Assembly: GCA_965237675.1 (NCBI GenBank)
Contig: OZ250150.1
Span: forward strand, 5,440,001 to 5,504,000
DNA length: 64,000 nt
Source of the DNA: Candidatus Latescibacterota bacterium
GTDB lineage: Bacteria; Latescibacterota; UBA2968; GCA-2709665
Direction of reading: 5' to 3'
In this document: positions 38,698-60,954 of the stretch, piece after piece
Position numbering within the stretch: the first letter of the stretch is position 1
Layout of the letters: every line of letters starts with the position of its first letter
The notes under the pieces: generated by a model
What the model was told of the DNA's origin: nothing
Databases searched by the model: none
Seen by the model: only the letters and a program-made list of their open reading frames with translations
Program-made: the position numbers and the translations under genes

Positions 38698-38771
38698 TCT
38701 AGCAGACAGCCAGACCACCGAAGTGAGGGGAGATGGGGACGGCTTTGCCGCGGTCCTTCACGACGCGGTAT
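38698..38771 (-). CRISPR. Displaced partial type I-C repeat plus 37-bp spacer-sized segment
   Basis: 38715-38734 ccaccgaagtgaggggagat is identical to 20 nt of the array repeat, in the same orientation; 38735-38771 separates it from a family-2 repeat. Confidence 0.8.
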
Positions 38772-38808
38772 GAGTCGGTCCTTGTTCTGATGGAAGATTC
38801 TCGACGTG
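38772..38808 (-). repeat. Solitary family-2 CRISPR-like repeat
   Basis: gagtcggtccttgttctgatggaagattctcgacgtg. Confidence 0.85.
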
Positions 38809-38836
38809 TCCGCCTTCGATTGTTCATTTAAGCCTC

Positions 38837-39160
38837 TCATGGGATGCCTGCCGCTGCTCCAAACGCCTCTTGTGCTTCCCGTATCTTGACGTCCAACAAC
38901 GCCTCTTGTATCTCCTCTTGTATGTCCTGCTCCGCTTGCGTAAAGACATCGGCGGACCGCCGCCGGTAAACTTCCGTTCGGAATTCTTGGTTGTCCTCCC
39001 TGATCTTGTCTTGAAAAGCTTCCCGTACCGCCACTTCCATATCCGTCGCTATCGACGGGTTTTCTAGCACGGCATTCTTTACCGCCTGCTTCAGTATTTC
39101 TCGCGGTTCCCCTTTTTGTGCCCCAGCGTCCCACAACACCCGTACCGCCTGCTTCAGCAT
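38837..39160 (-). CDS. Hypothetical helical protein (cassette cargo)
   Basis: 107 aa with internal repeat MLKQAV/ILKQAV; fills the interval between two repeats. Confidence 0.55.
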   Translation of the reverse strand: MLKQAVRVLWDAGAQKGEPREILKQAVKNAVLENPSIATDMEVAVREAFQDKIREDNQEFRTEVYRRRSADVFTQAEQDIQEEIQEALLDVKIREAQEAFGAAAGIP

Positions 39161-39198
39161 TTCTCACCTTGGATTGCTCATTTAAGCCCTCCCAGATG

Positions 39199-39235
39199 GT
39201 TTAAATCCTTGTTCTGATAGAAGATCTTCACCGGG
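39199..39235 (-). repeat. Solitary family-2 CRISPR-like repeat
   Basis: gtttaaatccttgttctgatagaagatcttcaccggg. Confidence 0.88.
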
Positions 39236-39236
39236 A

Positions 39237-39424
39237 TTAGCGGCGGCACCTGGCGGTGCGTTTTTCAGCCGCTCGTTCGGCGTCGGCTTTGGCCCACAGG
39301 GCCAACTGGGACAAGGTAGGAACCGGCAGGCCGCCTTGTAGTCGGCAGGAGCAAACGGCGTCCCGTCGGGATGCCAGCCGCGGCCGAATATCTTCGTGTA
39401 CTTTTCTTTAGGTAGGGTAGGCAT
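39237..39424 (-). pseudogene. Small WHxDGTPFxPADY protein, frameshifted copy
   Basis: Homologous to 47018-47227; 4-nt deletion after KAAC; the restored frame reads LPVPTLSQLALWAKADAERAAEKRTARCRR with TAA 1 nt before the repeat. Confidence 0.7.
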
Positions 39425-39427
39425 AGA

Positions 39428-39464
39428 GATTCAATCCTTGTACTGATGGAAAATTCTCGCCGGG
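39428..39464 (-). repeat. Solitary family-2 CRISPR-like repeat
   Basis: gattcaatccttgtactgatggaaaattctcgccggg; ATG follows 3 nt downstream on the minus strand. Confidence 0.88.
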
Positions 39465-39470
39465 TCTATC

Positions 39471-39560
39471 TCAATCGAACCAATCCCGGGGCGTAAAGTA
39501 TTTGATTCCAATAACCACCACAAGAATGACAGCAAGCAAGAGTATAAATCCCAAAATCAT
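39471..39560 (-). CDS. Small single-TM peptide (cassette cargo)
   Basis: MILGFILLLAVILVVVIGIKYFTPRDWFD; stop 6 nt before the repeat. Confidence 0.45.
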   Translation of the reverse strand: MILGFILLLAVILVVVIGIKYFTPRDWFD

Positions 39561-39569
39561 AGCGGCCCG

Positions 39570-39735
39570 TATCAGCCCGTTGATAAAGTCCATCCGGGCT
39601 GCGTCCGGTCCTTGTGGCCGAAATACTGCGTTGCACTCCCTCTCCGAATCCCCGGATTCGACGCGGTCGCGCGCCTTGTCTTCGGCCACAATGACTCGGC
39701 CTCGCCTGCAGAGCGACTTTTTCAACGGACTGCTA
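39570..39735. mobile_element. MITE-like element with terminal inverted repeats
   Basis: CAGCCCGTTGATAAAGTC ... GACTTTTTCAACGGACTG ends, internal palindromy, partial second copy at 34653. Confidence 0.8.
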
Positions 39736-39749
39736 TATACTTGTTTTCC

Positions 39750-39785
39750 GTTTCAGTCCTTGTTCTGGGGAAGATTCCGAGCGGG
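39750..39785 (-). repeat. Solitary family-2 CRISPR-like repeat
   Basis: gtttcagtccttgttctggggaagattccgagcggg. Confidence 0.85.
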
Positions 39786-39810: not shown

Positions 39811-40362
39811 TTATTCATCTCCGCGGATCCTGGCCAGCGCCTCGCTCGCAGCATCTGCCATGAAATCCAGAGAGTCCTTAAGATTCTCGCGTATCCATTC
39901 GAGATACCTGACCGCCCGTTGCTCTCGAAACTCACCGAGTTGCCGGATGATCGTCTCCCCCAGACCGGTGCCCAAAGGGTATCGGTCTCTGGCCATGTGC
40001 TCGAAAACGCTCTCGAGCAGATTCAGCAGGTGTTGGCGAATTTCCTCCGAATCCGGTGAGGGTCTCCAGACGTAACGCGGGTTTTCCCAGGACACCCACT
40101 CGTCGGGTCGACCGGCTTGCACGCGCCGTTCCTGTTCCCAGCCGCCATGGCGCATCACCGGCCCGATCGGGATGCGATCGCGATCGGGCCGGCGATGTGG
40201 ATGGTTCGCACAATAGGTGTAGAAGGGATTCTCTATCGCGATGTCCCTGATCTCGCAATAGGGCGGTATGCTCTTGTCAGCGTGCCGCGACCAGTCGCGC
40301 TCGCCCTGGTTCGTTCGATTGAACCAACAGGTTCCGCAACAGTCGGATCCTCCGTTGGGCAT
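39811..40362 (-). CDS. Hypothetical Cys/His-rich protein
   Basis: GGAGG RBS; MPNGGSDCCGTCWFN..YCEIR..YCANH; HEAT-like tail; ends 25 nt before the repeat. Confidence 0.75.
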   Translation of the reverse strand: MPNGGSDCCGTCWFNRTNQGERDWSRHADKSIPPYCEIRDIAIENPFYTYCANHPHRRPDRDRIPIGPVMRHGGWEQERRVQAGRPDEWVSWENPRYVWRPSPDSEEIRQHLLNLLESVFEHMARDRYPLGTGLGETIIRQLGEFREQRAVRYLEWIRENLKDSLDFMADAASEALARIRGDE

Positions 40363-40699
40363 CGCTCAGCCCTCCTCCCGGTTGAAACTCCGCAACATCT
40401 CCCACAACCCGTCATGTAGTAGCGCTCGCACCGTCACATCGTTCGGTCCAATTGGAATCCTCCGCCAGGCATAACATAAAGTCCATTTGTCGCAAGTATT
40501 GCGACAACATTAAAAAAGCTATCGGCTGTTAGCGTGCAGCCGTCAGCCAGAAACAGTGAGAAAAGGAACCGGTGTGAAGGTGGGGCGGACATTCCTGTCT
40601 GCCCTTATCATTGTCCTTCTGTCGCGATACAGACAGAAGCAAGGCTTGCGCCGTCCTCTTTCCAGTGGGGGAGACGGCGGCGAGTCGCGGCGTGCCCAG

Positions 40700-42262: not shown

Positions 42263-45100
42263 TCACCTGAACAGCCCCGAGTACTTAAAGGTCATAATGT
42301 AGTCCTGCGAACCCTGCTTCCTGGCCAAGGGTCGATTGTCGTAAATGTCCCATCCCAAACCGAAGAGAAACTGATCCTTGAAAAAAGAAACGGCCACGCC
42401 CAGAGAAATGGCCAGCGATTTTTTGGTTGAAAGGGCTTCGAGGACGTTGCCGATAACGGTCAGATGGATGCCGGAAATCGACGGGTTATCCACGTTGTGC
42501 CAGCCGGCAAAAGCGAGTCCGGGCAGGCCAAGCAGGCGCTCAGTTCTGCCTTGGACCGCTTTGCCATCGGCGTCTGTATAATCGCGCCCAGGGCGAATCG
42601 TCAAAAAGGAAATCAGCGGCTTGGCCTCAAACTCCCACTTCCAGCCCCCGGCTTCCAGAATCTGCGATACGCTCTGAGACTCCGCACCCGGGTGACTTCG
42701 GGTTGTGATTCTGAGTCGCACTCGGCGATTGTCGTCTTCTGACAGCTGCAAATTGAGATCCTCGGCTAAGACCCGCCCGCCGCTCGATTCGTTGATTCTA
42801 ACCTTCAGCTTTCGGTTACTGCTATTGCCTTTGGGGGCGTAGTTTTCGTCAAGCCGCGTCCACTCGACGACCATCTCGCGACCGATTAGCGCCCGCCGCA
42901 GCGAGTCGGGAATCGCAAAGGACACATCCACTTTGGTGCCGTCTTTTTGCACGACGGGGACATTGTTCCAACTAACGGCCAAGGGTTGGGTCTTCTCGCC
43001 GCGGGTGACCCGGACCTCGACAATCTGCGCCAAGTCGATGTCTGCGAGTACCCCGTGCCCCTTGTATTCGAGCGGACGGGCGCGATCCTTGACGTTGTTG
43101 CTGACCAATAAAACGCGCCCTCGGCGATCGCCTAAAGCATCGGGCGCAAAAAAGAGCGTGACGTCCGCTGACTTGCCCGCGGCCAGCGCGAATTGCGCCG
43201 GTGCAACATGGGCTTCGTTGTTTAGGGGATGCGCCTCAACTCGCAGCACGGTATCGCCGACGTTGGTGACCACGAAGGTCCTTTCCGCCTGCTCTCCCAA
43301 GACCGCATAGCCAAAATCAATGATGCCCTCCGGATTCAACTCGATTTCCGCGGCCACGCCGTGGCCCTTGAGCAAGATGTCGAGCGCCAATTTCTCATTC
43401 GCGCCCCAGCCGTCCAAGCGCAAGGTCCCCGAAATCGCTCCACGGGTCGACGGGCTGAAGGTTACGTCTAGCGGCAAGGTGTGCTGGCTGTGGGCCGGCA
43501 GCAAGAACCTACTGTCGGCGTCGATTGAGGTGTGGGCTGTAAACTGGGCGCTCGTCGAGCGAAGCTGGTAAATCTCAAAATCGGCGTTGCCCACATTGGC
43601 TATTTCGACGACTCGGCTGCTGCTTTCGCCGACGGCAACGCGGCCGAAGTCTACGGTTGCCGGGCTGAGGGCAAAAAATCGGCCTACACCCTGCAAGTGC
43701 ACGGTCTGACGCTCGGCTTCGGCCTCGACATGGAGAATGGCTTTGTGAGTACCGGATTCCTTGGGCGAGAAACTCAGCGCCACCTGCGCGCTGGCTCCGG
43801 GCTGAATGAGGACGGAGTGCTGCGCGAGATCAAATTCAACGCCCTCGTCCGCGACTACAGAGACCTGCACCACGCCCGGCCGGCCACCCTTGTTCCACAA
43901 TAGCAAATGGCTGCGCGCGCTCCCGCCGATAGGCACGCTGCCGAAGTCAATGTCGCCATTAATGATCTCGATGCGCGGTGGTCTGATTTGGCCCCGACCC
44001 GCGAGGGGGATGGCGACGTTAGCAGCTTGCGGATCGTTGGTGTACAGGCGCAGGATGCCGCTTTGGTCGCCTTCGCTCTGCGGCACAAACGCTGCGCTCA
44101 GATCAAGTCGTCCCTCGGGAGCAATGGTCGCCGACGAGTCTCCTATTCCAAGGGTAAATGCTGCACCCTCGATGGCGACGTTTTCAACATGCAACTCGGC
44201 TTGGCCCTGATTGAGAACGGTCACGTGGCGCGTTAGGCGCTGACCCATTTCGACGGAGCCAAAATCGAGGCCCACTTGCGGGAGGGGAGAAAAAGCCGCT
44301 TGCGGTACCAAACCGCTCCCCTGCATGGGAATGGACCAATCCCCAAAGTCGGGTGCGGTGACGACGAATTCAGTCGCGACTAGCCCCGCGCCCGTCGGTG
44401 CAAACGCAACGTCTATCCGCGTTTCACCGCCGGGAGCGGGCCAAGGGCCGACATCGCCCTCAACGCTAAAGGGGCCTTGTAGGTCGGCTACTTCCATCTG
44501 CCCAACCGCCACGGGCACGGTTCCAGTATTTCTGAAGATAACAACCGCCATCGCCACTTGCCCGACGGGAACCGCGCCAAAATCCAGCCCCTCGGCTGGC
44601 AAAAGCACCAAGGTCGGAACGACGGCTGCCGCTTGGAGCGGCACGACTAAGCGCTGGTCTATGAACAAGGCGGCTACCTGCAACGTCAGTTCGCCCGAAT
44701 ACTCCCCAGCCGCAGTTGCGCTGAATCTCACTTCGACGCTACTGACGCCCTTGCCGTCCAAGCGCAGCGTATCTGAGAACGCGCGAAAGCCGTCGCCGCT
44801 AATACCGACGATCATCTCAAGCGCGTCGTCTTGCAGATTTTCTATGGAAACGGACGCCCGCGTCTCCACGCCGACGCCGACTACACCCAAGTCAAGCGCA
44901 TCTGGGTCAATGGCGAGGGGTTGCGCGCGCAGAAACACTGGCAGGCACAGGAGGGCGAGCAGAAGAACAAAAGAAAAGCAGACAACCCACCAGAATTTCG
45001 AACTCCATGGTTGTCGGAGATTCACGTCGCAGAGGTGCCGAAGATGACGCCTGACGTATTCTTTGCGCCGATTCATGTGACCCTCGTTTCGTCCATACAT
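42263..45100 (-). CDS. Large surface protein with tandem Ig-like (choice-of-anchor D/ASH-type) domains
   Basis: N-terminal hydrophobic signal; about six (L/I/V)DFG.V..G..N.G..L.G.G units; start uncertain. Confidence 0.85.
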   Translation of the reverse strand: MYGRNEGHMNRRKEYVRRHLRHLCDVNLRQPWSSKFWWVVCFSFVLLLALLCLPVFLRAQPLAIDPDALDLGVVGVGVETRASVSIENLQDDALEMIVGISGDGFRAFSDTLRLDGKGVSSVEVRFSATAAGEYSGELTLQVAALFIDQRLVVPLQAAAVVPTLVLLPAEGLDFGAVPVGQVAMAVVIFRNTGTVPVAVGQMEVADLQGPFSVEGDVGPWPAPGGETRIDVAFAPTGAGLVATEFVVTAPDFGDWSIPMQGSGLVPQAAFSPLPQVGLDFGSVEMGQRLTRHVTVLNQGQAELHVENVAIEGAAFTLGIGDSSATIAPEGRLDLSAAFVPQSEGDQSGILRLYTNDPQAANVAIPLAGRGQIRPPRIEIINGDIDFGSVPIGGSARSHLLLWNKGGRPGVVQVSVVADEGVEFDLAQHSVLIQPGASAQVALSFSPKESGTHKAILHVEAEAERQTVHLQGVGRFFALSPATVDFGRVAVGESSSRVVEIANVGNADFEIYQLRSTSAQFTAHTSIDADSRFLLPAHSQHTLPLDVTFSPSTRGAISGTLRLDGWGANEKLALDILLKGHGVAAEIELNPEGIIDFGYAVLGEQAERTFVVTNVGDTVLRVEAHPLNNEAHVAPAQFALAAGKSADVTLFFAPDALGDRRGRVLLVSNNVKDRARPLEYKGHGVLADIDLAQIVEVRVTRGEKTQPLAVSWNNVPVVQKDGTKVDVSFAIPDSLRRALIGREMVVEWTRLDENYAPKGNSSNRKLKVRINESSGGRVLAEDLNLQLSEDDNRRVRLRITTRSHPGAESQSVSQILEAGGWKWEFEAKPLISFLTIRPGRDYTDADGKAVQGRTERLLGLPGLAFAGWHNVDNPSISGIHLTVIGNVLEALSTKKSLAISLGVAVSFFKDQFLFGLGWDIYDNRPLARKQGSQDYIMTFKYSGLFR

Positions 45101-45339
45101 ACGTTCAAATTACCCACCGTGTATTGTGTAGAAGATCAGTTACAAGGCCCAGACGAGCCGAGGATAGCGGTTCGAACTATGACCAGCCGGTACGTGTTGG
45201 CCAACGAGGACGTCGGCAAACAGCTATTCGGCACGTCGACACACGCCTCCGCGTCGATAAGAATATACAGAGGAAAACGCGGGATTCAATCCCGACCTGG
45301 AATATTCACTGTTGTTGAACCGAATAATAGTTGAATCTA

Positions 45340-46975
45340 GGAGTCTGCGCCGCAGGAAAATTCATTTCAATGGACAGGTAAAGGTAGGTATAATGGGTCG
45401 TGTAGTTCGGAAATGTCAAGCAGTAAAGAGGTTGTGAGTTGTGTCAACGGAGGGAGCTATCGATGCCGACGACCTTTCGTGCGTATCACCCGGACCAGAT
45501 ATTGCTGTTGGCGCCTGATCTTCGGGAGTGGGTGCCTGAAGGGCATCTGTCGCACCAGGTGAGCGATCTGGTGGATTCACTGGATCTGGGGTCGTTCTAC
45601 GCGCCGTATGAAGGCGATGGGCGTCGCAACGCGCCTTATGAGCCATCGATGATGTTGAAGGTATTGATATATGGGTACGCGACGGGTGTGTATTCGTCTC
45701 GTGGGATCGCGCGGAAGCTGGAGGAGGACGTGGCGTTTCGTATGTTGGCGGCAGGCAATTTTCCACAACACCGGACGATCTGCGAGTTTCGTCGTCGTCA
45801 CCTAAAAGATTTCGGGCGTTTGTTCGTGGAGGTGGTTCGTGTGGCGCGGGAGATGGGTCTGGTACGTTTCGGGACGCTATCTTTGGACGGCACGAAGGTA
45901 CGAGCGAAGGCGAGCAAGCGCAAGGCCATGAGTTACGGGCGGATGTTGAAGGAACAGGCTCGTCTGGAGAAAGAGATCGGGGCGTTGCTGGCGGGGGCTG
46001 TGTCGATTGATGCCGAGGAGGACGCGCGTTACGGCGCGGATGTTCGTGGCGACGAGTTACCGGTCGAGTTGCAGCGCAGGCAGGTTCGTCTGGCGGCGAT
46101 CAGGGCGGCTCGGGAGCGTCTAAAAGCATCGCAACGAGCCGTCGACGATGCGCGCGGTCGCAAGCCCGGTCAGAAGTGCAACCCGAAGGGCGGGCGGCCA
46201 TACAAAAGGGCCTATGGCGAGCCCGACCCGAAGGCGCAGAGCAACTTCACGGACCCCCAGTCTCGGATCATGAAGACGAGCGCGGAGGGGTTCCAGCAGT
46301 GCTACAACGCCCAGACGGTGGTGGACGCCGAGCGTCAGATCATCGTGGCTGCGCATCTGGGGTCAGCGGCCACCGATCAGGGCTTTATGCTCCCTTTGCT
46401 GGATGGGGTGCAAGAGACATTCGGGGTCAAGCCGGCGGTGGTTCTGGCGGACGCGGGATACTGCAACGAGGAGGACCTGGCCACGCTTGAGGAACGTGGC
46501 ATCGACGGTCACGTGGCGCTGGGGCGGGAGGGCAGGGAAGGGGTGGACGTCGATTCGGAGACGCTTCCAGCGACGCATCGCATGGGCGAAAAACTGGCGA
46601 GCCCGGAAGGTCGGGGCCTGTATGCGATGCGCAAGTGGCTCTCCGAGGCGCCGAACGGATGGATCAAGGAGATACTGGGCTTCCGGCGCTTCAGCTTCCG
46701 GGGTCTGGAAAAGGTGCGGGGCGAGTGGGACCTGGTCTGCCTGGCGTTGAACGCCAAGCGGATGGCAGCGTTGACGATGTGTTGAGGCATGAGTTCGGGC
46801 GTCCTGTGCTTGTGGACTCGACATACGGGAAGCCACGATCCCTAATATCTCGTCCTCAACACGCCTGACTGCCACGATGCCCCCGCCCGAAACTCATCAT
46901 CCCACTCCCAACATAACACCGAACCCAACACAGACACATCTCGCCCTTTGCAAAAACTCCTGCGGCGCAGACTCC
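45340..46975 (+). mobile_element. IS1182-family insertion sequence
   Basis: Perfect 18-bp inverted repeats GGAGTCTGCGCCGCAGGA (45340-45357 and 46958-46975) around a transposase. Confidence 0.93.
45463..46785 (+). CDS. IS1182-family transposase
   Basis: PSMMLKVLIYGY..SSR.I, LDGTKV.A.AS, NFTDPQSRIMK, LADAGY, GFRRFSFRG. Confidence 0.93.
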   Translation: MPTTFRAYHPDQILLLAPDLREWVPEGHLSHQVSDLVDSLDLGSFYAPYEGDGRRNAPYEPSMMLKVLIYGYATGVYSSRGIARKLEEDVAFRMLAAGNFPQHRTICEFRRRHLKDFGRLFVEVVRVAREMGLVRFGTLSLDGTKVRAKASKRKAMSYGRMLKEQARLEKEIGALLAGAVSIDAEEDARYGADVRGDELPVELQRRQVRLAAIRAARERLKASQRAVDDARGRKPGQKCNPKGGRPYKRAYGEPDPKAQSNFTDPQSRIMKTSAEGFQQCYNAQTVVDAERQIIVAAHLGSAATDQGFMLPLLDGVQETFGVKPAVVLADAGYCNEEDLATLEERGIDGHVALGREGREGVDVDSETLPATHRMGEKLASPEGRGLYAMRKWLSEAPNGWIKEILGFRRFSFRGLEKVRGEWDLVCLALNAKRMAALTMC

Positions 46976-47014
46976 CAGGGCAATATGAGCATTCACTGGG
47001 AACCCTACTTAAGC

Positions 47015-47051
47015 GTTTCAATCCTTGTTCTGGTGGAAGACGTTCGACGAT
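47015..47051 (-). repeat. Solitary family-2 CRISPR-like repeat
   Basis: gtttcaatccttgttctggtggaagacgttcgacgat. Confidence 0.9.
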
Positions 47052-47227: not shown

Positions 47228-47338
47228 CGTTCAGGTCTCCCATATAGTCCCACCGGATATCCCCAACGTGGTCCCCCGGCAGGTTTTCGCGAAAAGCCTC
47301 AATGGACCGCTCGCCACCCGGCAACTTCTGGGCGTCGG

Positions 47339-47375
47339 GTTTCGATCCTTGTTCTGGTGGATCTACATTTGCGGG
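47339..47375 (-). repeat. Solitary family-2 CRISPR-like repeat
   Basis: gtttcgatccttgttctggtggatctacatttgcggg. Confidence 0.85.
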
Positions 47376-48174: not shown

Positions 48175-49929
48175 CTACGATGTTCCCCGGTCGCTCCGAT
48201 TCGTACTAAGCAGCCCTCGCAGCCTGTGATGCAGACGGTCGCGACGGGCTTCGTAGAACGCGTTGAACCCTGTGATTTCCGTTGGGATCTCACCCAAGTC
48301 ATTTCGAGAGACGAAATCGCTCGCCGCTTCGGAATCATAGGTATTAGCGATCCACTCGTGCGGCAACCTATCGCGCTTGCTTTCGTTGGCCTCCCCGGTG
48401 AGCAACTGCAGATTGGGGAGGCGGTTGACACGGTCGAGGTACTCCGGGATGTGGTCTTCAGCCACTCCGACCTGGCGTAGACGCCCACGCGTGAACCGGC
48501 TCTTCGGAAACACGTGATCGATATGGAACCTGTTGCTTTGCACATCCACGAAGGGGTATAAGACGGACAGTAGCGCGAACGTACGGTCCTTCGACTCCAC
48601 GAGATCCTCTATTTCTTCTTCCTCGAATGCCAGGCTCTTGCCGCGCACCCGCATCCCAGCTTCCAGTTTCGCCGACGGGAATGCCTCTGCGCCATGTGTA
48701 TCGATCAGGCTCCTGAGCGAGGTGAGCAGGGTGTCCAGACCGCTGCCCCAAATCCCTCGCTTGAGCAGTGATCGCAATAGCCAATCTCGGATATCATCTC
48801 GATCCTGGCGGTACAACGATTGAGACAAGAATCCCGTGGGTGTATCCTTGCAATACAGGTAGTGAGCAATGGGCAGAACTGCGTAGTTTGCGCTTAGACT
48901 GGCCTGGGAAAAACCAAACCTTGCCACCAATTCCACGGCTGTGCGTACTGCGCGCGTTATCGGGTCCCAGTTCTCTTCAAGGAGCTTCATGTTGTTCCGA
49001 TTGAAATTGGTCGCCCTGAAACGAACGTTCGCGACCCCTGCAAGCATAAGGCCTGCTTTGAGCAGGAAGTCCTGAGTGAACGCGAAGCCCGTCCCGATGC
49101 GGTTTATTTCGTCCACCGTGCCGTGTATTGCCTCGCGGGCATCCAGTTTCTCCCACTGTGCGGTGGCCATACTCATCAGCATGTCTGAATAGCTCAGCGT
49201 CGTACCACCACTGTTGGTACGGATAAAGATGTCAAGAACCTTGTCTATATTTTGGTCAGGTTCCTCGTAGTGCGCGATAACCGGATCCGTGTGCACAACC
49301 TTTTGTAGCTTCCCTAGGACGTTGCCTGGGCGGCGTTCATTGCCAAGTTGTCTGTTCACGAGAATTTCGTTGAGATCCTGCCACTCCTCAACCTGTAGGA
49401 TCTCGCCAACGGGGTACCAGCAGTGCGTTTCGTCCCGCCGTTCGGCCTCTTCGCTGGTCAGAAATCGAAAATCGTACTGCATGTTTTGCTCGTTCTCCTC
49501 CGCGTCCGCGAGAAGATTCAGGTATAGTTTCCGCTTTGGAAATGCGTCTGGGTTGTTCCACCATAGACGCGGCAGTTTGTAGGCGTAGGTACCCCGTAGC
49601 CCGATGTTCAAACCCGTTAGTCGTTGCTGGCCGTCGAGCACTGCGGTAACTTCATCTCGGGTGAGGGCTCCTATTGGATCGCAATGGGGGTTATCTCTCT
49701 CGTGATAGTTAAGCATTAAGTCGTAGAACTTGTACTTAGCGATGCTCTCTCGTTCGACGATCCAGAACAGGAACGACCCAATCGGGTACCCGCGCATCAG
49801 GCTGTCGAAGAGACATTGGATCTGTTCAGGCCGCCACACGAATTCCCGCTGAATCGCAGGAAGCACATACTGCCTACCTTCAATAGCCCCGAGGGCCTTG
49901 CTGATCGTGATAGGAGTCTGGAATCCCAT
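48175..49929 (-). CDS. DUF262 plus HNH (GmrSD-like) restriction protein
   Basis: LPAIQREFVW, DSLMRGYPIG, LDGQQRLT, IFIRTNSGG, HIDHVFP..NLQLL..N. Confidence 0.9.
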   Translation of the reverse strand: MGFQTPITISKALGAIEGRQYVLPAIQREFVWRPEQIQCLFDSLMRGYPIGSFLFWIVERESIAKYKFYDLMLNYHERDNPHCDPIGALTRDEVTAVLDGQQRLTGLNIGLRGTYAYKLPRLWWNNPDAFPKRKLYLNLLADAEENEQNMQYDFRFLTSEEAERRDETHCWYPVGEILQVEEWQDLNEILVNRQLGNERRPGNVLGKLQKVVHTDPVIAHYEEPDQNIDKVLDIFIRTNSGGTTLSYSDMLMSMATAQWEKLDAREAIHGTVDEINRIGTGFAFTQDFLLKAGLMLAGVANVRFRATNFNRNNMKLLEENWDPITRAVRTAVELVARFGFSQASLSANYAVLPIAHYLYCKDTPTGFLSQSLYRQDRDDIRDWLLRSLLKRGIWGSGLDTLLTSLRSLIDTHGAEAFPSAKLEAGMRVRGKSLAFEEEEIEDLVESKDRTFALLSVLYPFVDVQSNRFHIDHVFPKSRFTRGRLRQVGVAEDHIPEYLDRVNRLPNLQLLTGEANESKRDRLPHEWIANTYDSEAASDFVSRNDLGEIPTEITGFNAFYEARRDRLHHRLRGLLSTNRSDRGTS

Positions 49930-50727
49930 CAGTGAAAACCTCCTTCGAATCGGGTTTACAGCGGCGACAACGGAAAGTGCTAATACACGCACCACCGGTG
50001 GGTACGGGTGCGCCGTCTGGATTCTATGCCATGGACTTTGCGGCTAGGGCCAAAAGCCGGTACCGTGAGCGTTAATCTCCTTCTGGGCCTTGGCGGAGAC
50101 TCTGCGTCGCTTGTACGCGTTTCCTGGTAGCCTCGTAGACCTTCATTCGAAGAAAGCAAGGGGTGCCGAGATTGCTATGGTGCCCGATGTGCCACTGCCT
50201 GCGCCTATGCAGGAACCACATGAATGGATTGACTGTGACCGCCGAGCATTTCTGGGGGTATTCGCACACTCAGGGTTCGCGGTCCAAGTGTATGTTGCCG
50301 CGCAACAGGTGTGGGCTCAACATGCCGATGGACGCGTACGCAGTCGCTTGCACGGTACTGGGTACAGCGGTTGGTGGTACTTGTGGTCCGTCAATTCAGG
50401 GTCAAGATTGATGTTCCAGCGTGCCAGTCCAAAGATGCGCCCGAATAGGCTTTTGAGCCACCGGGTACAGAACGTGGTGCGATGCGAGAGTTGGTGCACC
50501 GCATCTATTGCACAAGTACCTCTCGGTAGATCCGCGACCGTTTCCGGTCCAACTTGACCGAGGTATAGGAGACAAATTCATTCGACTCGACAATATGACA
50601 ACGTGCAGAGCAAACGTCGCCTGATCGTCGGGTTCGTTCACGTTTCGATTCCGGTTCCTGTGGAAAATGCACTGCGGATTGTCGTGCGTACACAACGCAC
50701 CTCGGCCATTCGGTCTCTTGGCGCTGC

Positions 50728-51642
50728 TTAAGCAACCTCGAACAGGTAGCGCACCCACTTGTTTGCGACGTCGGAGATGCCATCCACGTCAATTACGAAT
50801 TCCTGCCCTGGGCCTTCCGAGGTGACATGGATCCACGGCGCGGCGCGCCGCCGCATTTTGACTTTACGCTTAAGGCGCCTGCAACCGTCGGCTGGCCAGA
50901 ACCATTCAGGCAGTCTCCAGTGTGAGCATCGGGATGATGCTCCCTTTTCAACTTCCTCCGGCTCGGTCAAGATGATACGGCAGTCTTCGTTCTGAAATAC
51001 GCCGCCTCCGGGTGCGTCGGTTCCAGCGATACTGAGCTTCGGAGTCGAAACGTAGACCGTGTTGTTCATCGGCCTCCGAGGATTGTCGCCCGGTTCCCGG
51101 AATGATCCGTTCAGATGTGGGTGGTCCGATAGCCACGGATACTTGCCCAGAGCGCGGTCGTAGTCCGCAACTGTATGAAGTGCCAAAACTTCATGTACCT
51201 GAAGCCAACCGAAAATCAGATGGACTCTCGGTGCGGTTCTGACGAAACACCAACCGCCGCTGCCATCTTCCTCGACCCGCCGGAACGTTCCGAAGAACAG
51301 GAAAAGGTCACCCTGACAGACGCCCTGATTGGCCAGGTGGGTTTGAGATTCATCTACCAGTCCGAATGCTGGCCGCCATCCGGATTGCCGTGGGATCGCT
51401 TCGTCTCGAAGGTCTGGATCCAGGTGGCACCAACAGTCTTGCCTAACTTTACTCAGGCACTCCACAATCGGCGCGAGCGAGCGACCAACCCACAGAACAT
51501 CGCTAAACCGTTTCGAAGATTGAGGATAACGCTGGGGCGTCGGAATAGGGAGGGAGAGGATTCTCCCGTCTGGGAAAATCGGGCTATGGCTCTTTCCAGT
51601 TTTCGAGTCGAATCCCTTGCGGCTGAGCACGATTCTCTTCAT
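50728..51642 (-). CDS. Nmad3-like nucleotide-modification-associated protein
   Basis: MKRIVLSRKGFDS..SPIFPDG..SLPIP..CHLDPDL..GDLFLFFG.F..IFGWLQV..HPH..QEFV. Confidence 0.8.
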   Translation of the reverse strand: MKRIVLSRKGFDSKTGKSHSPIFPDGRILSLPIPTPQRYPQSSKRFSDVLWVGRSLAPIVECLSKVRQDCWCHLDPDLRDEAIPRQSGWRPAFGLVDESQTHLANQGVCQGDLFLFFGTFRRVEEDGSGGWCFVRTAPRVHLIFGWLQVHEVLALHTVADYDRALGKYPWLSDHPHLNGSFREPGDNPRRPMNNTVYVSTPKLSIAGTDAPGGGVFQNEDCRIILTEPEEVEKGASSRCSHWRLPEWFWPADGCRRLKRKVKMRRRAAPWIHVTSEGPGQEFVIDVDGISDVANKWVRYLFEVA

Positions 51643-51646
51643 CGGT

Positions 51647-51683
51647 AAAGTCCTCGTTGTTCTGATGGAAAATTCCCTGTCTA
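51647..51683 (-). repeat. Solitary family-2 CRISPR-like repeat (degenerate 3' end)
   Basis: aaagtcctcgttgttctgatggaaaattccctgtcta; ATG of the Nmad3-like gene follows 4 nt downstream. Confidence 0.72.
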
Positions 51684-51785
51684 CAATCTCCTCAAGTCCG
51701 GCGCCTAATGGGCCGGCCGGCACGATTCGACTCGAACCCACAACGTGCATCCGGACAAAGCGGCGGCTTGTCGCGTGAGGTGGAT

Positions 51786-52340
51786 CTAACGCATCTCCAA
51801 CCGTTCGCCGCGCCGAAGCAGCCCGAGGCTCTCGGCGATGCGCCGCTCCCGAGTTGCCTCGCGTTTGGCCGTCCCTATCCACGTGATGAACTGGCGCTGG
51901 TACGAAGGCGCCAGGGTGTTCCAAAAGGCTTGAGCATTGGGATCGGCTTCCAAGGCGGCTGAGAACGCGTGCGCCATCTCGAACCGAGCCGCCTCAGGCT
52001 TCCAACCCCAGGTTCCGCTACGCTTCGCTTCGTCGATCAGGCGCTGGCCGGCGGCCGTCATCTTGCCGGACGCGCGCAGCCGGTCGACGCGCTTACGGTT
52101 CGTTTCCGACCACCGGCTCCCCGGCCTTCTCGGCGTGAAGCGGTGCATGTAGCGCTCGTCGTCGATCCGCTGCTTCGTCCCGTCGATCCAGCCAAAACAC
52201 AGCGCTTCCTCGACCGCGTCGTTGTACGTCGCTGTCGGTTTGTCCACGTGTTTCTTGTAGAACACCACCCAGACCGCGTCGACGCGATCGTGGTTCGCGC
52301 ACAGCCAGCGTCGCCAACAGGACCGGCTTCTCGGGGTGAA
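51786..52340 (-). CDS. YdeI/OmpD-associated family protein, N-terminus unclear
   Basis: WRRWL..NH, AVEEALCFGWIDG, FTPRRPGSRWS.TN, AKREATRERRI. Confidence 0.85.
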   Translation of the reverse strand, partial: FTPRSRSCWRRWLCANHDRVDAVWVVFYKKHVDKPTATYNDAVEEALCFGWIDGTKQRIDDERYMHRFTPRRPGSRWSETNRKRVDRLRASGKMTAAGQRLIDEAKRSGTWGWKPEAARFEMAHAFSAALEADPNAQAFWNTLAPSYQRQFITWIGTAKREATRERRIAESLGLLRRGERLEMR

Positions 52341-52941
52341 GCGCCGCTCCGGCGTGGACCTCGCCGCCTGCCTCGACCTGCCGGGAAGGGAAACATCGAC
52401 TGCTTTCTTGTCCGAATCAGGCATGAGGATCTCCGTTATTCCCATTTGGAAGCGCAACGCTACAGGCACGCGAAGGCCAGCGCGGTAAAGCCACGACCGA
52501 TCGACAGCTGTATGGCGCCGGGATGCCCCACGTATCTGGGCGTCGCTTCAACTCGCTCAGCAACCCCACTGGGCACCAATTCCACCTCTTTGAACTCGAA
52601 CAGTTACACATTGCTGTTGAAGCGTACCGCCATGTCCGGACGACCCGGGTGGCGCAGAAACCCTTTTCACGTCAGCTTACGGAGCCCGTGGACGACATTG
52701 AACGCCGACGGTATATCCGGTAACTGGTCTACCCGCTCCCCAGGGCGTGCCCGGGGAAAATCGCCCGAACCTGCGAGAATCGGTTCAGTAGTGGCACCGC
52801 TGATCGGCGCTGCCCATATCGGTATTAACTATTGGGGCTTGAAACAGATGGACAAAGCTGCAAACATCCGTAGCCTCCACGTCGATGCGTCTCGAAAAAA
52901 CGTAAGCCCCTGCTCACTGGTGAAGACATGGCCTGCCGTGG

Positions 52942-53190
52942 TTAGAAAATGCCTCCGCCGAGCGCAAGGCGTATGATGCCAAAAAACAGCGCCACAATGC
53001 AGCATACTAAGCCCGCGATACCGCAGCTCTTGGAGTTGCTGCCCGCCGTAACCAGCGCGATGCCGCAGACGATGACGCCCAAGCCTGCAAAAGGGATATT
53101 GAGCCAGTTTAGCGAGCCGAGACAAGGAAAAAAGCCCACCACCATTCCAACAATAGCCAGAATTCCCCAAAGCAAACTAAGCACCCGCAT
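52942..53190 (-). CDS. Small membrane protein
   Basis: AGGAGG RBS; FFPCLGSLNWLNIPFA; three hydrophobic segments. Confidence 0.75.
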   Translation of the reverse strand: MRVLSLLWGILAIVGMVVGFFPCLGSLNWLNIPFAGLGVIVCGIALVTAGSNSKSCGIAGLVCCIVALFFGIIRLALGGGIF

Positions 53191-53194
53191 GATG

Positions 53195-53512
53195 TTACCT
53201 CCTTTTGTGCATCCGGCGCATCATGAAAACGGCGACCACTAGCTGATTGGCGAGCAAAGCTCCAAGAATGGCGACCGACCCTCGATTGTAGATAAGAGCT
53301 GCCGAGAAGTCGCCACGTGCAGTGGCCGCGAATGCGCGCGTCATGCCGCACAAAGCGCAGGTTTCCCCGTTGCGATGCGGCACCTTAAGAGCCTCGCTCG
53401 TGGAAAAAAGCGTTTCCTCCGGCACAAGGTAGGGCAAGATCAATATGAAAAGCAGCACAGTTGACGCCACCAACCACGCCGCCAAAAGGGTCCTCCTGGC
53501 ATAGCGGTCCAT
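53195..53512 (-). CDS. DUF2752-like membrane protein
   Basis: CALCGMTRAF..GDF.AA..YN; starts 31 nt after the repeat. Confidence 0.75.
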   Translation of the reverse strand: MDRYARRTLLAAWLVASTVLLFILILPYLVPEETLFSTSEALKVPHRNGETCALCGMTRAFAATARGDFSAALIYNRGSVAILGALLANQLVVAVFMMRRMHKRR

Positions 53513-53543
53513 TGCGTCGGCTCCGTCGTGAAATACGAGGATT

Positions 53544-53580
53544 GTTTCAATCCTTGTTCTGATGGAAGATTCCCGACGGT
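53544..53580 (-). repeat. Solitary family-2 CRISPR-like repeat (best-conserved copy)
   Basis: gtttcaatccttgttctgatggaagattcccgacggt. Confidence 0.9.
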
Positions 53581-53661
53581 GTGTGGAGCGCACGCGAGGC
53601 ACTGCTGTTCTGTGGGGTGCGTCTCATGTACGGTTAAGGCGCGGGGACGCACTATCCGCGG

Positions 53662-54744
53662 TCATGCCAGGTTGGCGACGCGGCGTTCGGCGGCGGCGAT
53701 GTCGGCGGCGCCGTCGAGCACGGTGATCTCCAGGTGGAACTCGCGTGTGGCGCCGGGTTCCAGGTACTCCAGGAAGTCGTGCCTGCGGTTCCAGGCGCGC
53801 CCGAGGGGCGAGCAGTTGCCCGGCTCCACGCCGGTCACGTAGCCGGCGGCGGCGAAGTGCTGCCACTGGGTGACCAGCGGCAGCTCGGCAGCCGGCATGC
53901 GCCACTGCAGGCCGTACGCAAGCCGGTCGTTGATCAACGCAACGGTCACGTTGCCGTTGGCGTCCGGTACCGGCCGGTGCACGTAGACGTCGTCGCCGGC
54001 GCCCGGCTCCGGGGCGCGCGCCCGCTCGTACTCCGCGGCATCGACCGGGCGGTCCTGCAGCCACTCGGTGCTGAACTGGCTGTTGACCACGAACCGGGTA
54101 CCCTCGTCGAGCAGCGGGAAGCCGGGATTGGTGTGGTACAGCAGCATCAACGGCGAGCGCAACCCGCCTAGGTTCTCCACTCGGTCGTGGATGCTGATGC
54201 GGCGCTCGCCCAGCGTAGTGGTGATTTCGCGGCGTAGCTCGAGGGTGGTGCCAAGTGCCACCGCTTCGCGCATGGTGCCGGCGATGCGCAGGCGGTATTG
54301 GTCTCCCTGCCAGCTTCCGCCGGCGCTCACGTCGCGCGCCGGGATGGCGGACAGCCGCCCGTGCAGGCCCAGCTCCTCGCCTTCCTCCTCCGGGTCGGTT
54401 TCGGGATGGCCGACGAAGGTCAGGCCGCAACTGATGAGCAGGCCGCCGAAGAAACTGCGCATCCAGCCGTAACCGCCGGGCTCGAAGAATGCCGGGCCGA
54501 CGTCACCGGTGGCGCTGCGGAAACACAGCGACCGCCCCCGGTAGGTGGCGGCAGCGATGTCGAGCGCCCGTCCGGGCAGCACCGAGAAGCTCAGTCCGGA
54601 GGCGTTGCTCACCTCGATCAATCCGGCGCCGCGCTCGTTGCCCTCGGTCAGCTCGGCGCGGCGAACGGCGGCGAGCTGGCTCATATCGCCGACCAACCGC
54701 AGCAGCTCCGCCTTCGTGTAGTCACGTCCAAACAGATGCGCCAT
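53662..54744 (-). CDS. Aldose 1-epimerase-like (DUF4432) protein
   Basis: GDMSQLA, LPGRALDI, FFGGLL.SCGL, LHGR, LYHTNPGFPLL, YVTGVEP; very GC-rich. Confidence 0.85.
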   Translation of the reverse strand: MAHLFGRDYTKAELLRLVGDMSQLAAVRRAELTEGNERGAGLIEVSNASGLSFSVLPGRALDIAAATYRGRSLCFRSATGDVGPAFFEPGGYGWMRSFFGGLLISCGLTFVGHPETDPEEEGEELGLHGRLSAIPARDVSAGGSWQGDQYRLRIAGTMREAVALGTTLELRREITTTLGERRISIHDRVENLGGLRSPLMLLYHTNPGFPLLDEGTRFVVNSQFSTEWLQDRPVDAAEYERARAPEPGAGDDVYVHRPVPDANGNVTVALINDRLAYGLQWRMPAAELPLVTQWQHFAAAGYVTGVEPGNCSPLGRAWNRRHDFLEYLEPGATREFHLEITVLDGAADIAAAERRVANLA

Positions 54745-54856
54745 GCTCGCTCTCTCCTCTCGTGGACGGGCGGCGCCCGGTCAGCGGTCGTGCCAGCGGG
54801 TGTTGCTGCCGGTGCCGCCGGTGAGGCCGATCACCCGCCCCATGATCGCCGCGCCG

Positions 54857-55002
54857 TTACGCCGGGTGCCTCGCCGGGGCAACGTGAGCGCGGCCGATCT
54901 GTCCTACCGAGGTACAGCCGATGAGCGCCATGGTGCGGCTCATCTCCTCGGCCAGCAGGCTTACCGCGTAGTCGACCCCCGCTTCGCCGCCGTTGCCAGA
55001 CT
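54857..55002 (-). pseudogene. C-terminal fragment of an FMN-dependent alpha-hydroxy-acid oxidase, cut at the array repeat
   Basis: GNGGEAGVDYAVSLLAEEMSRTMALIGC begins immediately after ATTGAAAC of the last array repeat. Confidence 0.75.
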
Positions 55003-57672
55003 GTTTCAATCCGCTCCCCCCACCGAAGTGAGGGGAGATGTCATCTCGGGCGCGTGCGCGAAGTCCTTCCACGAGTTTCAATCCGCTCCCCCCACCGAAG
55101 TGAGGGGAGATATTCAGGATGTTTCCGCGTCTATCGTTCCGTCTCCGGTTTCAATCCGCTCCCCCCACCGAAGTGAGGGGAGATATGGACGAAGAAGTCA
55201 TACACTACGACTCCCGGATAGGTTTCAATCCGCTCCCCCCACCGAAGTGAGGGGAGATTTTTATGATGGACTGGATAGACGCCGAAAGAAACAGTTTCAA
55301 TCCGCTCCCCCCACCGAAGTGAGGGGAGATCTGTATCCGTGCGCCTCATCGCCCTCGACCTCTCACAAGTTTCAATCCGCTCCCCCCACCGAAGTGAGGG
55401 GAGATCAGCGCGGGTATGCCTTCCTCGCGCACGACATCCAAAGTTTCAATCCGCTCCCCCCACCGAAGTGAGGGGAGATGAATCTGACGGGTATCGTACC
55501 CGCCGTCCCACTCGAGTTTCAATCCGCTCCCCCCACCGAAGTGAGGGGAGATCCTTCGCGTATGACGAGGGCCTTGATCCTTTCATGAGACAGTTTCAAT
55601 CCGCTCCCCCCACCGAAGTGAGGGGAGATCGCTTGCTCGGTGGCTGAGAGTTGCGATACTTACGTGTTTCAATCCGCTCCCCCCACCGAAGTGAGGGGAG
55701 ATCTCCCAGGCGGCACAATGGCGGTTAGTGGGAACCAGGTTTCAATCCGCTCCCCCCACCGAAGTGAGGGGAGATCGCCGGGCGGCGACCTGTGGGAAGC
55801 GTCGGGGATGGTCGTTTCAATCCGCTCCCCCCACCGAAGTGAGGGGAGATGCCGTGGGCGTTTTCATTCCGGGAAAGGCTGACATGTTTCAATCCGCTCC
55901 CCCCACCGAAGTGAGGGGAGATCAGGGGCCGCTTGCCGGGGTTACCATCAAGGATCCGCGTTTCAATCCGCTCCCCCCACCGAAGTGAGGGGAGATCTCT
56001 GTCGGGCATGGCGAAAAGAACCAACAAAAGCAAGTTTCAATCCGCTCCCCCCACCGAAGTGAGGGGAGATATCCTTATCTCGCGCCGGCACTGTTGGGTA
56101 CGACGAGTTTCAATCCGCTCCCCCCACCGAAGTGAGGGGAGATTTAAACCGGGGCCACAATACAGGAGGGTAAATAATGGTTTCAATCCGCTCCCCCCAC
56201 CGAAGTGAGGGGAGATGTCGGCCGGAATTCTTGCCGAACACGATAGCGCAGTTTCAATCCGCTCCCCCCACCGAAGTGAGGGGAGATTAATGCCTGATTT
56301 TACTGGCGAACAAAAGAAAAAGTTTCAATCCGCTCCCCCCACCGAAGTGAGGGGAGATGGGCGCACAGATCGCCTCTGAGCGTTCCTTTTGTGGTTTCAA
56401 TCCGCTCCCCCCACCGAAGTGAGGGGAGATTCCTGTCTTCATCCGTGAATACATATCCTTCAGGCATGTTTCAATCCGCTCCCCCCACCGAAGTGAGGGG
56501 AGATCTACGATGCGGTATCGGATGTCGGTGCCTGCAATGTTTCAATCCGCTCCCCCCACCGAAGTGAGGGGAGATAGACAGCGGGTGGGCATTGACGACT
56601 GACGCGATAGGTTTCAATCCGCTCCCCCCACCGAAGTGAGGGGAGATTTGTCTGCCGGACGCGGCGCAATGCCGTCGCCATAAGTTTCAATCCGCTCCCC
56701 CCACCGAAGTGAGGGGAGATCCCGAAATGCAAGGGTGGTGGGACAAGTGCACTCAGGACGTTTCAATCCGCTCCCCCCACCGAAGTGAGGGGAGATGCGC
56801 GATGACGCCAAGACAAAAGTCATTCACAATGTTTCAATCCGCTCCCCCCACCGAAGTGAGGGGAGATTCGTAACCGTGCACGAACTGCTCAAAAGCGTCG
56901 ATGGTTTCAATCCGCTCCCCCCACCGAAGTGAGGGGAGATCCACGCCCCGCGCGGGTTCGCGCAACTCGTAGGAATGTTTCAATCCGCTCCCCCCACCGA
57001 AGTGAGGGGAGATTGCCTGTCTCCTCTTGAATCAGTGACGCGCTCAGGTTTCAATCCGCTCCCCCCACCGAAGTGAGGGGAGATTCATTTTCGTGCCTAC
57101 CTGCACAGCGAAAGACACGGTGTTTCAATCCGCTCCCCCCACCGAAGTGAGGGGAGATTCCCCGACCCCTCCCCTCCCACGGCCGTTCCTCCACGTTTCA
57201 ATCCGCTCCCCCCACCGAAGTGAGGGGAGATCAGGTTGCTCGACAAGGCCGTCCCAGGGGCTACGTGTTTCAATCCGCTCCCCCCACCGAAGTGAGGGGA
57301 GATGTGTCGCCTGTGGCCCTGGGGGTTTTGACCCGTACAGGTTTCAATCCGCTCCCCCCACCGAAGTGAGGGGAGATCCGTGGTGTCCTGGGCCTTGCCC
57401 TGGGTCTATACTGGTTTCAATCCGCTCCCCCCACCGAAGTGAGGGGAGATGTGCCGTCGCGGGCGTACGTCACCTCGGAACCAAAGGTTTCAATCCGCTC
57501 CCCCCACCGAAGTGAGGGGAGATCCAGGGGCGTCCGTGGGAGAGGCGGGTGGTGGGTCCGGGTTTCAATCCGCTCCCCCCACCGAAGTGAGGGGAGATGT
57601 ACGTGGTCGCGGCGGCTTACGCCGCGCTGGGTACGGTTTCAATCCGCTCCCCCCACCGAAGTGAGGGGAGAT
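55003..57672 (-). CRISPR. Type I-C CRISPR array, 37 repeats and 36 spacers
   Basis: 37-nt repeat ATCTCCCCTCACTTCGGTGGGGGGAGCGGATTGAAAC (minus strand); spacers of about 34-40 bp; counted by eye. Confidence 0.98.
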
Positions 57673-60929: not shown

Positions 60930-60954
60930 TGATGAATTCCTTTCTGTGAAAGAT

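Follow-up and report, generated by a model that had tools for sequence, protein, structure and literature searches.

The window studied here is a 64,000-nucleotide (nt) stretch of the genome of a Candidatus Latescibacterota bacterium (contig OZ250150.1, positions 5,440,001 to 5,504,000), and coordinates below are those of the window. It holds a locus in which protein-coding genes are bordered by single copies of a clustered regularly interspaced short palindromic repeat (CRISPR). Nine solitary copies of this 36-nt repeat, called R2 here, lie between positions 38772 and 53579, all on the minus strand; an array of 37 type I-C repeats (R1) stands on one side of them and a truncated R1 on the other. 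R2 itself is a true CRISPR repeat, of type I-B. We lean towards the reading that the block is made of repeat-bounded units in the old trailer of a composite array, that these units have been shuffled by recombination between repeats, and that R2 has been retained as an expression signal. The block would then be the old trailer of a composite CRISPR locus that has lost its I-B cas genes and that now has the type I-C module and the R1 array on its leader side. The stretches between repeats would be units that are deleted, duplicated or given new neighbours by recombination between repeats, including R1-by-R2 exchange through the shared 3' sequence GGATTGAAAC. The insertion sequence (IS), the miniature inverted-repeat transposable element (MITE) and the defence genes would be ordinary insertions that add to the mosaic, and a genus-specific family of small proteins would be a class of cargo coupled to R2.

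Organization of the repeat block

The minus-strand consensus of R2 is CCGGTGAGAATCTTCCATCAGAACAAGGATTGAAAC. The sequence-only reading with which this analysis began had listed nine co-oriented repeats that cut the region into segments of 390, 192, 285, 7229, 287, 524, 3710, 1860 and 1422 base pairs (bp); all nine are confirmed, on the minus strand and in the orientation of the array throughout, and the sizes follow from their coordinates. It had also placed I-C repeat sequence on both sides of the block, and this is correct, with the R1 array on one side and a 20-nt piece of R1 on the other. The features that define the locus are the following.

57853 to 63602, minus strand: type I-C genes cas5d, csd1 (cas8c), cas7, cas4, cas1 and cas2, in this order (Pfam Cas_Cas5d, Cas_Csd1, Cas_Cas7, Cas_Cas4, Cas_Cas1, CRISPR_Cas2)
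55003 to 57672, minus strand: R1 array, 37 identical 37-nt I-C repeats with spacers of 34–40 nt (repeat search)
53544 to 53579, minus strand: R2 copy a, no mismatches in the 26-nt core (core scan and profile)
51647 to 51682, minus strand: R2 copy b, truncated, the 5' two thirds of R2 fused to the 5' leader of an Nmad3-domain gene (profile)
47900 to 47935, minus strand: R2 copy c (core scan and profile)
47339 to 47374, minus strand: R2 copy d (core scan and profile)
47015 to 47050, minus strand: R2 copy e (core scan and profile)
39750 to 39785, minus strand: R2 copy f, seven core mismatches (profile)
39428 to 39463, minus strand: R2 copy g (core scan and profile)
39199 to 39234, minus strand: R2 copy h (core scan and profile)
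38772 to 38807, minus strand: R2 copy i (core scan and profile)
38735 to 38771, minus strand: spacer-length stretch of 37 nt between the last R2 and the truncated R1
38715 to 38734, minus strand: truncated R1, its first 20 nt (5' piece), the conserved distal end of the block

The leader-side system is of type I-C by its effector genes, its cas4-cas1-cas2 genes and its hairpin repeat; in R1 a 10-bp hairpin (-19.1 kcal/mol) precedes an 11-nt tail, and the I-C cas3 gene was located by tblastn just past the window edge. At the other end, the truncated R1 also terminates the block in two relatives, G012 and G008, and in G008 the other half of the repeat follows after a 16-nt insertion. The 37-nt stretch beside it is identical in G012 and has no other convincing match. 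A 112-amino-acid open reading frame (ORF) that overlaps the truncated R1 contains three tandem 21-nt repeats (38467–38534), which suggests a heptad-like repeat protein.

R2 is confined to this locus. When a 26-nt core of R2 was used as query for a mismatch-counted scan of the 5.6-Mb genome, all seven matches with at most five mismatches fell in the block and on the minus strand (38772, 39199, 39428, 47015, 47339, 47900 and 53544). The copy at 39750 has seven mismatches to the core, and seven more matches at that level are scattered through the genome on both strands. An nhmmer profile, built from 70 solitary R2 copies of other genomes with the copies of this genome excluded, has the nine reported sites, and no others, as its best nine matches in the genome (on the minus strand throughout, with E values of 2e-10 to 0.047), and the tenth-ranked match has an E value of 0.41. 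A weak tenth copy can be seen at 50642. Neither scan revealed a regular R2 array anywhere in this genome. R2 is therefore not a dispersed element of the repetitive extragenic palindromic (REP) type; a REP or operator motif scattered in both orientations, named at the outset as the case that would speak against a CRISPR connection, is not seen, and membership in the REP/MITE-type dispersed repeats belongs instead to an element of about 166 nt at 39570–39735 (below).

As to the contiguity of the block, separately assembled contigs from public sequencing runs cross seven of the nine repeats (38772, 39199, 39428, 47015, 47339, 47900 and 51647) with zero differences, although one of these runs may be the source sample, so the check is not fully independent.

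R2 belongs to a type I-B system still held by relatives

An 18-nt R2 pattern, searched with up to two mismatches, occurs in 28 of 41 related genomes, and the reversed control pattern in none. Fourteen of the relatives carry regular R2 arrays of 20 to about 140 copies with a period of about 74 nt. The Cas6b_C domain was found in 13 of the 41 genomes; all 13 carry R2 arrays, and the sole genome with an R2 array that lacks the domain is G012. In G010 about 65 regularly spaced R2 copies adjoin cas6b, a cas8b-like gene, cas7 (DevR/Csa2), cas5, cas3 and cas1 (Pfam Cas6b_N/C, Cas_CXXC_CXXC with a weak E of 9e-4, DevR/Csa2, Cas5, Cas3 and Cas1). R2 is thus a type I-B repeat, because conventional R2 arrays adjoin I-B cas genes in relatives of the same genus. 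The suspicion that the solitary repeats derive from CRISPR, and the expectation that a profile of them would cluster at a CRISPR locus and lead to conventional arrays, are both borne out.

The cut made by Cas6b in other type I-B systems leaves an 8-nt 5' handle, ATTGAAAC, and this sequence is present in R2. R2 is unstructured: it folds no better than shuffled sequences (z +0.9 to +1.5) and forms no hairpin of the R1 type. A tblastn search of this genome with six proteins of the G010 system found no I-B genes, only the I-C cas1 and cas3 being matched, so that the proposed release of segments by Cas6 cannot operate here. Release by Cas5d, the other enzyme proposed, is likewise unsupported, R2 being without the hairpin of R1. 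In G012 a uniform array of 76 R2 repeats without a leader (L043 plus L044, oriented positions 12956–18520) lies directly downstream of its I-C module and R1 array, a truncated DUF4432 gene abuts the first repeat, and searches of G012 for I-B cas6b (Cas6b_C) and I-B cas7 found neither.

A small-protein family framed by R2

ORFs of 57–67 amino acids recur between R2 copies. Their ATG lies 2–5 nt 3' of one R2 and their stop codon 2–28 nt before the next, giving tandem units of 203–246 bp, and the encoded proteins share the motif WHPDGTPY..DYrKAGmPVPTpEQLAHWAE (14 intact members make up our alignment A1). Among 78 solitary R2 copies from 15 region sets, an ATG follows the repeat by 0–6 nt in 34, as against 9.2% at random positions, and 25 open an ORF of at least 50 amino acids after the repeat, as against 3.9%. 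When the same region sets were searched from the protein side with a hidden Markov model (HMM), all 41 domain matches were on the array strand, and 27 of 29 small-protein loci (adjacent genes being merged in this count) adjoin R2 or R1. The family is present in 12 of the 14 genomes of the genus, in one of two of the neighbouring genus and in none of 31 of the sister family, which nonetheless has R2 arrays and Cas6b. A metagenome scan yielded one further locus with the repeat-ATG layout.

The window has two members.

47018 to 47227, minus strand: intact 69-amino-acid member (HMM), its last codons and TGA stop inside R2 copy e
39239 to 39424, minus strand: frameshifted member (two HMM fragments in two frames), its ATG (39424) 3 nt after R2 copy g

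The intact gene has no adjacent upstream repeat, and the frameshift of the other is shared with G012. ATGs had been noted close after repeats at 39424 and 51642, and both hold; the latter is the start of the Nmad3-domain gene and lies 4 nt past the aligned core of R2 copy b.

The small protein has few relatives. The two copies in the window gave no Pfam match and the 14 members of A1 no NCBIfam match. A profile search of 1.84 billion representative sequences returned 58 matches at E ≤0.001, of which 20 were at ≤1e-10, and several of the 58 are long repeat proteins that share just a WHxDGTP motif. Matches in Caldilineaceae and Dehalococcoidia were considered as relatives and rejected: the motif there lies in other proteins (ORFs were read for L036 only), and these loci have neither R2 nor CRISPR-like repeats. 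The AlphaFold model (predicted local distance difference test score, pLDDT, 80) contains two helices, one short and one long, and two single-residue bridges; it has no match in the PDB at E ≤0.001, and a search of the ESM Atlas with the protein gave no usable match. Viral contigs contained no relative of the small protein and no match to R2, and an origin from mobile elements is thus unsupported.

Conservation of R2 and its possible role as a signal

In 210 pairwise comparisons of 21 cassettes, the R2 copy upstream of the small gene has an identity of 0.77 (0.81 in the core). This exceeds both codon-position classes of the gene, 0.64 for first and second positions and 0.44 for third positions, a difference that itself indicates coding constraint. 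A role of R2 as an intercistronic signal would explain why it is better conserved than coding sequence. We infer that the small genes may be read through from the array side with R2 as such a signal, that its AAGGA could be a ribosome-binding site, and that R2 could be a cutting site where Cas6b is present. The 3' end of the 16S ribosomal RNA carries CCUCCU, and the AAGGA of R2 stands 11–12 nt before the ATG. A scan for promoters and terminators gave counts equal to those in shuffled sequence and was not used. Contigs from two RNA libraries (runs X18 and X19) reach into parts of the block, but they may reflect carried-over DNA or a different strain, and we draw no claim from them.

Two other ways of reading the association between repeat and gene deserve mention. 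CRISPR repeats could have been co-opted as gene-cassette punctuation, with genes that are carried along in the transcript of the array, become separate or begin at each repeat (by Cas6b where present) and pass between arrays and strains by way of the repeats. Such a system would be a CRISPR-based counterpart of the integron, with defence genes and a dedicated small-protein family as its cargo; we think this unlikely. The other, a possible account though on the unlikely side, is that the block is neutral wreckage, a dead I-B array decaying under random insertions of IS, MITEs and defence genes, in which the repeat-ATG geometry is one accident copied in tandem and R2 has no function. Insertions of IS and MITEs into arrays are indeed plain here and in G003, many R2 copies are degenerate (4–8 mismatches), the cognate cas genes are missing from this genome, and its own two small genes are a frameshifted one and one without an adjacent upstream repeat. 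Decay alone fits poorly with R2 copies that are more conserved than the first and second codon positions of the genes they precede, among paralogues whose third positions are near saturation, and with a geometry kept in at least three diverged subfamilies and 13 genomes. It also fits poorly with the survival of the repeats between which, for most solitary copies, the ordinary spacers have gone.

Loss and exchange of units at repeats

The strain sampled in run X3 (depth 61) skips from 39447 to 39769 and so lacks one R2-to-R2 unit, with both ends in the same register within two repeats. The DUF4432 cassette, which is the first after the last R1 in the window, is preceded by R1 here and by R2 in G008 (two copies) and G012 (two copies), and its similarity to G012 sets in at GGATTGAAAC, the final 10 nt of the repeat, common to R1 and R2. 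The order in G012 is R1 array, small gene, R2, truncated DUF4432, R2 array, small gene, R2, DUF4432, R2, R1; the group of small gene, R2 and DUF4432 is thus duplicated and flanks the R2 array on both sides. From an order like that of G012, the junction seen in the window would arise if the last R1 and the first solitary R2 recombined in their common 10 nt and the DNA between them were deleted. The trailing units (183-amino-acid ORF, peptide, small gene, 107-amino-acid ORF and truncated R1) are 95–98% identical between this genome and G012, and two units of G011 are tandem copies with 95% identity. Relatives arrange the same units differently and give them different neighbours; DUF4432 has six different neighbourhoods in four genomes. 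That repeats delimit gene-bearing units which differ between strains and species is thereby upheld; the narrower expectation that strain breakpoints coincide with repeats fits the loss in run X3, and several other differences end elsewhere.

Two further joints in the public data, 47038–53538 and 50861–53689, have short sides (24 and 21, respectively) and could not be interpreted.

The sequence-only reading had proposed that genes are captured at repeats either by Cas1-type integration or by recombination in the shared 10 nt. The second route gains from the one junction that falls exactly there. The first, in which Cas1 and Cas2 would have inserted gene-sized DNA as giant spacers with duplication of the repeat, we consider decidedly improbable. 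The units are flanked by direct repeats in array orientation, and cas1, cas2 and cas4 are present in the I-C module (Pfam scans of ORFs in the block itself found no cas1, the gene that a casposon or other Cas1-mobilised element would carry). The units nevertheless stand at the trailer and not next to the leader, and a given unit can have R1 at its border in one genome and R2 in another. CRISPR adaptation integrases use a length ruler, and the units are far longer than any spacer ruler would allow; the 277 ordinary spacers extracted from the arrays of the 15 region sets are all 28–50 nt by the selection used, and no intermediate lengths were seen. Finally, solitary copies were compared with the repeat of the array in genomes that have a regular R2 array as well; in 17 of 18 cases their 5' 10 nt are nearer to the consensus of all solitary copies pooled. 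The solitary copies thus move together with their units, and are neither fresh duplicates of the array repeat nor homogenised by conversion from the array.

Integron arrays consist of co-oriented, mostly promoterless genes with a recurring short site, variable cassette order and expression from one end. The locus resembles them in its co-oriented, mostly promoterless genes split by a recurring short site, in the different orders of the same cassette among strains and, presumably, in expression from one end. It differs in that no IntI, attI or hairpin-forming attC was found here, the site being a CRISPR repeat, and in that the exchanges are compatible with plain homologous or microhomology recombination. 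A dedicated site-specific recombinase acting on the repeat would suit the cassette-like layout and the changing neighbourhoods of the same unit, and prophages are known to integrate into CRISPR repeats as attachment sites (10.1101/2020.10.09.333658, from which only this precedent is taken). We rate such a platform as highly improbable: there is no tyrosine recombinase (PF00589) within about 70 kb of the window, the nearest of five in the genome being at genome position 5,369,057, no recombinase domain was found among 40 ORFs scanned (serine recombinases were not searched by family), and R2 does not fold into an attC-type hairpin.

Recombination between repeats of an old trailer, with R2 retained as a signal, is the reading that we prefer, and several points weigh against it. 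The R2 copies were found by their likeness to a consensus and so look more conserved than they are; the genomes are related to one another and many of the copies are orthologous, which means that independent events are fewer than the counts; and gene conversion between solitary copies could pass for selection. Intact small genes are still present, together with R2, in G001, G011, G013 and G014, all of which lack cas6b, so Cas6b cannot be required for expression of the small genes, which argues that cutting is not essential. Repeats do not mark the ends of a 171-nt indel (54781–54953), of the MITE and IS insertions or of the microhomology junction at 51647, and just one strain-level indel has its breakpoints in repeats, a loss, with no gain observed. 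The small protein is without a known family or fold, so that no function supports the story, and the read-through, processing and translation of the units are all things that we infer.

Recurrence across the genus and interleaving of R1 and R2

Similar blocks are found through the genus. In G001, G008, G011, G013 and G014 the low-mismatch R2 copies cluster, co-oriented, at one locus per genome. The array that has the solitary copies on its trailer side is an R2 array in G010 and G003, and an R1 array in this genome, in G008 and in G011. The two repeat families are interleaved in several of these loci: G008 has R2, 40 nt, a degenerate R1, 34 nt, R1, 37 nt and an R1 split by a 16-nt insertion; G001 has R1, 36 nt, R2 and then a gene; and G011 has R2, 8 nt, R1, 1.6 kb, R1, 25 nt and R2. 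At one orthologous site the repeat is of R1 type in G011 and of R2 type in G014.

The split R1 of G008 (L014, oriented positions 19810–19890) is interrupted in its loop and is followed by a GC hairpin and a run of T, an arrangement that looks like a terminator. A low-depth contig of run X1 has a similar split R1, with 23 other letters between 55240 and 38707. The corresponding low-depth back-joint (55240–38707, depth 8.9) could not be interpreted; it resembles the split R1 of G008 and not a circle.

Larger cargo and insertions

The remaining features of the block are as follows.

53662 to 54744, minus strand: DUF4432 gene, first cassette after the last R1 (Pfam DUF4432, E 1e-90)
51786 to 53602, minus strand: segment with a DUF2752-like ORF, a 113-amino-acid ORF and an OmdA/YdeI-domain ORF (Pfam)
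50728 to 51642, minus strand: Nmad3-domain gene, ATG at 51642 (Pfam Nmad3, E 3e-57; start aligned with relatives)
48175 to 49995, minus strand: GmrSD-family gene with a DUF262-type N domain (Pfam GmrSD_N, E 1.6e-27)
45337 to 46978, plus strand: IS1182-like insertion sequence, transposase ORF at 45439–46785 (Pfam DDE_Tnp_1, DUF772)
42263 to 45100, minus strand: 945-amino-acid protein with Ig-like, ASH and DUF1573 repeats (Pfam)
39811 to 40362, minus strand: 183-amino-acid ORF of no known family, followed by R2 also in G008, G013, G003 and G012
39570 to 39735, no strand assigned: MITE-like element of about 166 nt, matched by blastn at 52 places in the genome (full-length at about 30), on both strands
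39471 to 39560, minus strand: ORF of a 29-amino-acid hydrophobic peptide (read from the sequence)
38837 to 39160, minus strand: 107-amino-acid ORF of no known family (ORF reading, no Pfam match)

All of the Pfam-matched cargo genes except the DDE transposase of the IS1182-like element are on the array strand, just as had been claimed. The idea that every segment is a cassette needs more trimming. Segment 39464–39749 is mostly MITE-like insertion and the 7.2-kb segment, which holds the IS and a relocated Ig-domain gene, is not a strict cassette either. The IS1182-like element has two more full copies in the genome (96% identical), and the gene for the Ig-like protein lies outside the repeat block in G010, G013 and G001. 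The MITE-like element is absent from this site in G012 and in contigs of runs X18 and X19, and the 29-residue peptide ORF is likely the original content of the unit into which it went. A second MITE-like copy (34652–34761) has a weak R2-like match (E 0.82) right beside it, at 34764–34798, and the element has very high depth in all four public runs examined.

R2 copy b and the Nmad3 leader are fused at a GAACAA microhomology. The GmrSD-family gene adjoins Nmad3 in G013 too, and Nmad3-domain genes recur in trailer loci of G001, G003 and G008 (L019, L020, L025 and L014), with up to four or five tblastn matches in G001, which suggests that Nmad3 is a second cargo family enriched in trailer loci. 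An ORF of 402–403 amino acids begins 1 nt after a degenerate R2 in G011 (L021, 8312–9520), G014 and G009; the G011 copy, which alone was covered by the Pfam scan, matches DUF6361 (E 4.5e-49). A module of about 150 nt with a palindrome of the TGTCGCAATTACTGCGACA type is repeated at 36735–37398, 40474–40553 and 47415–47684, upstream of ORF fragments resembling P-loop ATPases. The repeat block contains it, as does the trailer on the far side of the truncated R1, and it may be an operator or promoter region.

Comparison with known systems

Full-text searches of the literature, which did not extend to paper supplements, found no description of genes framed by CRISPR repeats. In engineered operons punctuated by Csy4 or Cas6 sites, a Cas6 site between cistrons gives separate messenger RNAs. 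The loci described here would be the natural equivalent of such operons should Cas6b cut R2, a candidate activity; many carriers lack cas6b.

Closer natural parallels are the standalone CRISPR repeat-like elements and mini-arrays, which have one or two repeats and a spacer partly complementary to a promoter (10.1101/2023.03.03.530964). As portrayed in the part of that paper drawn on here, they share with R2 the position of the repeats, apart from the regular array but within a CRISPR-cas locus or next to one, as well as conservation between related loci and a high frequency in type I systems including I-B. The present loci differ in having up to nine or ten single repeats beside protein-coding genes, tandem repeat-ORF units of 203–246 bp and no target complementarity found; the supplements of the same paper may list such loci. 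CreA, a two-repeat mini-array between cas genes that needs Cascade (same source), belongs to the CreTA system, which the block resembles in its I-B context, its degenerate repeats and a small toxic-looking element nearby, here the 29-residue hydrophobic ORF. Set against what that source says of CreTA, the repeats here are single, are located in the trailer and persist without any I-B effector.

Each solitary R2 might, with the sequence after it, yield a guide-like RNA with which Cascade represses a promoter, as in CreTA/CreR and the mini-arrays; we hold this to be improbable. Standalone repeats in CRISPR loci, especially of type I-B, often act in this way (10.1101/2023.03.03.530964, as far as the portion used here goes), and the pair formed by R2, 37 nt and truncated R1 at 38715–38807 has a suitable shape, just as the hydrophobic ORF at 39471–39560 recalls toxin genes. 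Most R2 copies, however, are single and directly followed by a conserved ORF instead of a spacer-like stretch between repeats. The sole stretch of spacer length (38735–38771) has no partial target in the genome beyond chance, the other copies being 192–7229 nt apart; none of the 277 spacers matches a cassette; and this genome has no I-B effector.

Recombination between repeats and deletion of spacers are established in ordinary arrays (Kupczok et al. 2015, PMC4524480), and the loss of units between repeats and the mosaic arrays among relatives are alike in both cases. Compared with what could be taken from that study, the units here are 0.2–7 kb in size and carry genes, and two repeat families recombine via a shared 10-nt end. 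In Clostridioides difficile, type I toxin-antitoxin genes adjoin I-B arrays (PMC5961336), so that small hydrophobic-peptide genes are tied to I-B arrays there as well; in the portion of that report consulted, they stand beside arrays, with antisense RNAs, and are not framed by repeats as here. Tandem repeat-ORF units and kilobase-sized cargo between single repeats are covered neither by the standalone elements nor by array recombination, the nearest described systems, in the parts of these sources that we have used.

Significance

The roles so far known for standalone CRISPR repeats are to give rise to guide-like regulatory RNAs or to serve viruses as decoys. In the locus described here the repeats of a lost I-B system have persisted for long as borders of protein-coding units, and in a whole genus of uncultivated bacteria the genes of a private family of small proteins have R2 at a constant place with respect to their start and stop codons. 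Even the most modest reading documents one CRISPR type laid over another, two repeat families that recombine via a shared 10-nt end, and trailer repeats that act as recombination substrates for kilobase-sized units. If the repeats are indeed signals of expression or exchange, CRISPR arrays would be able to store and shuffle genes, not spacers alone, and these loci would be a natural example of repeat-punctuated operons.

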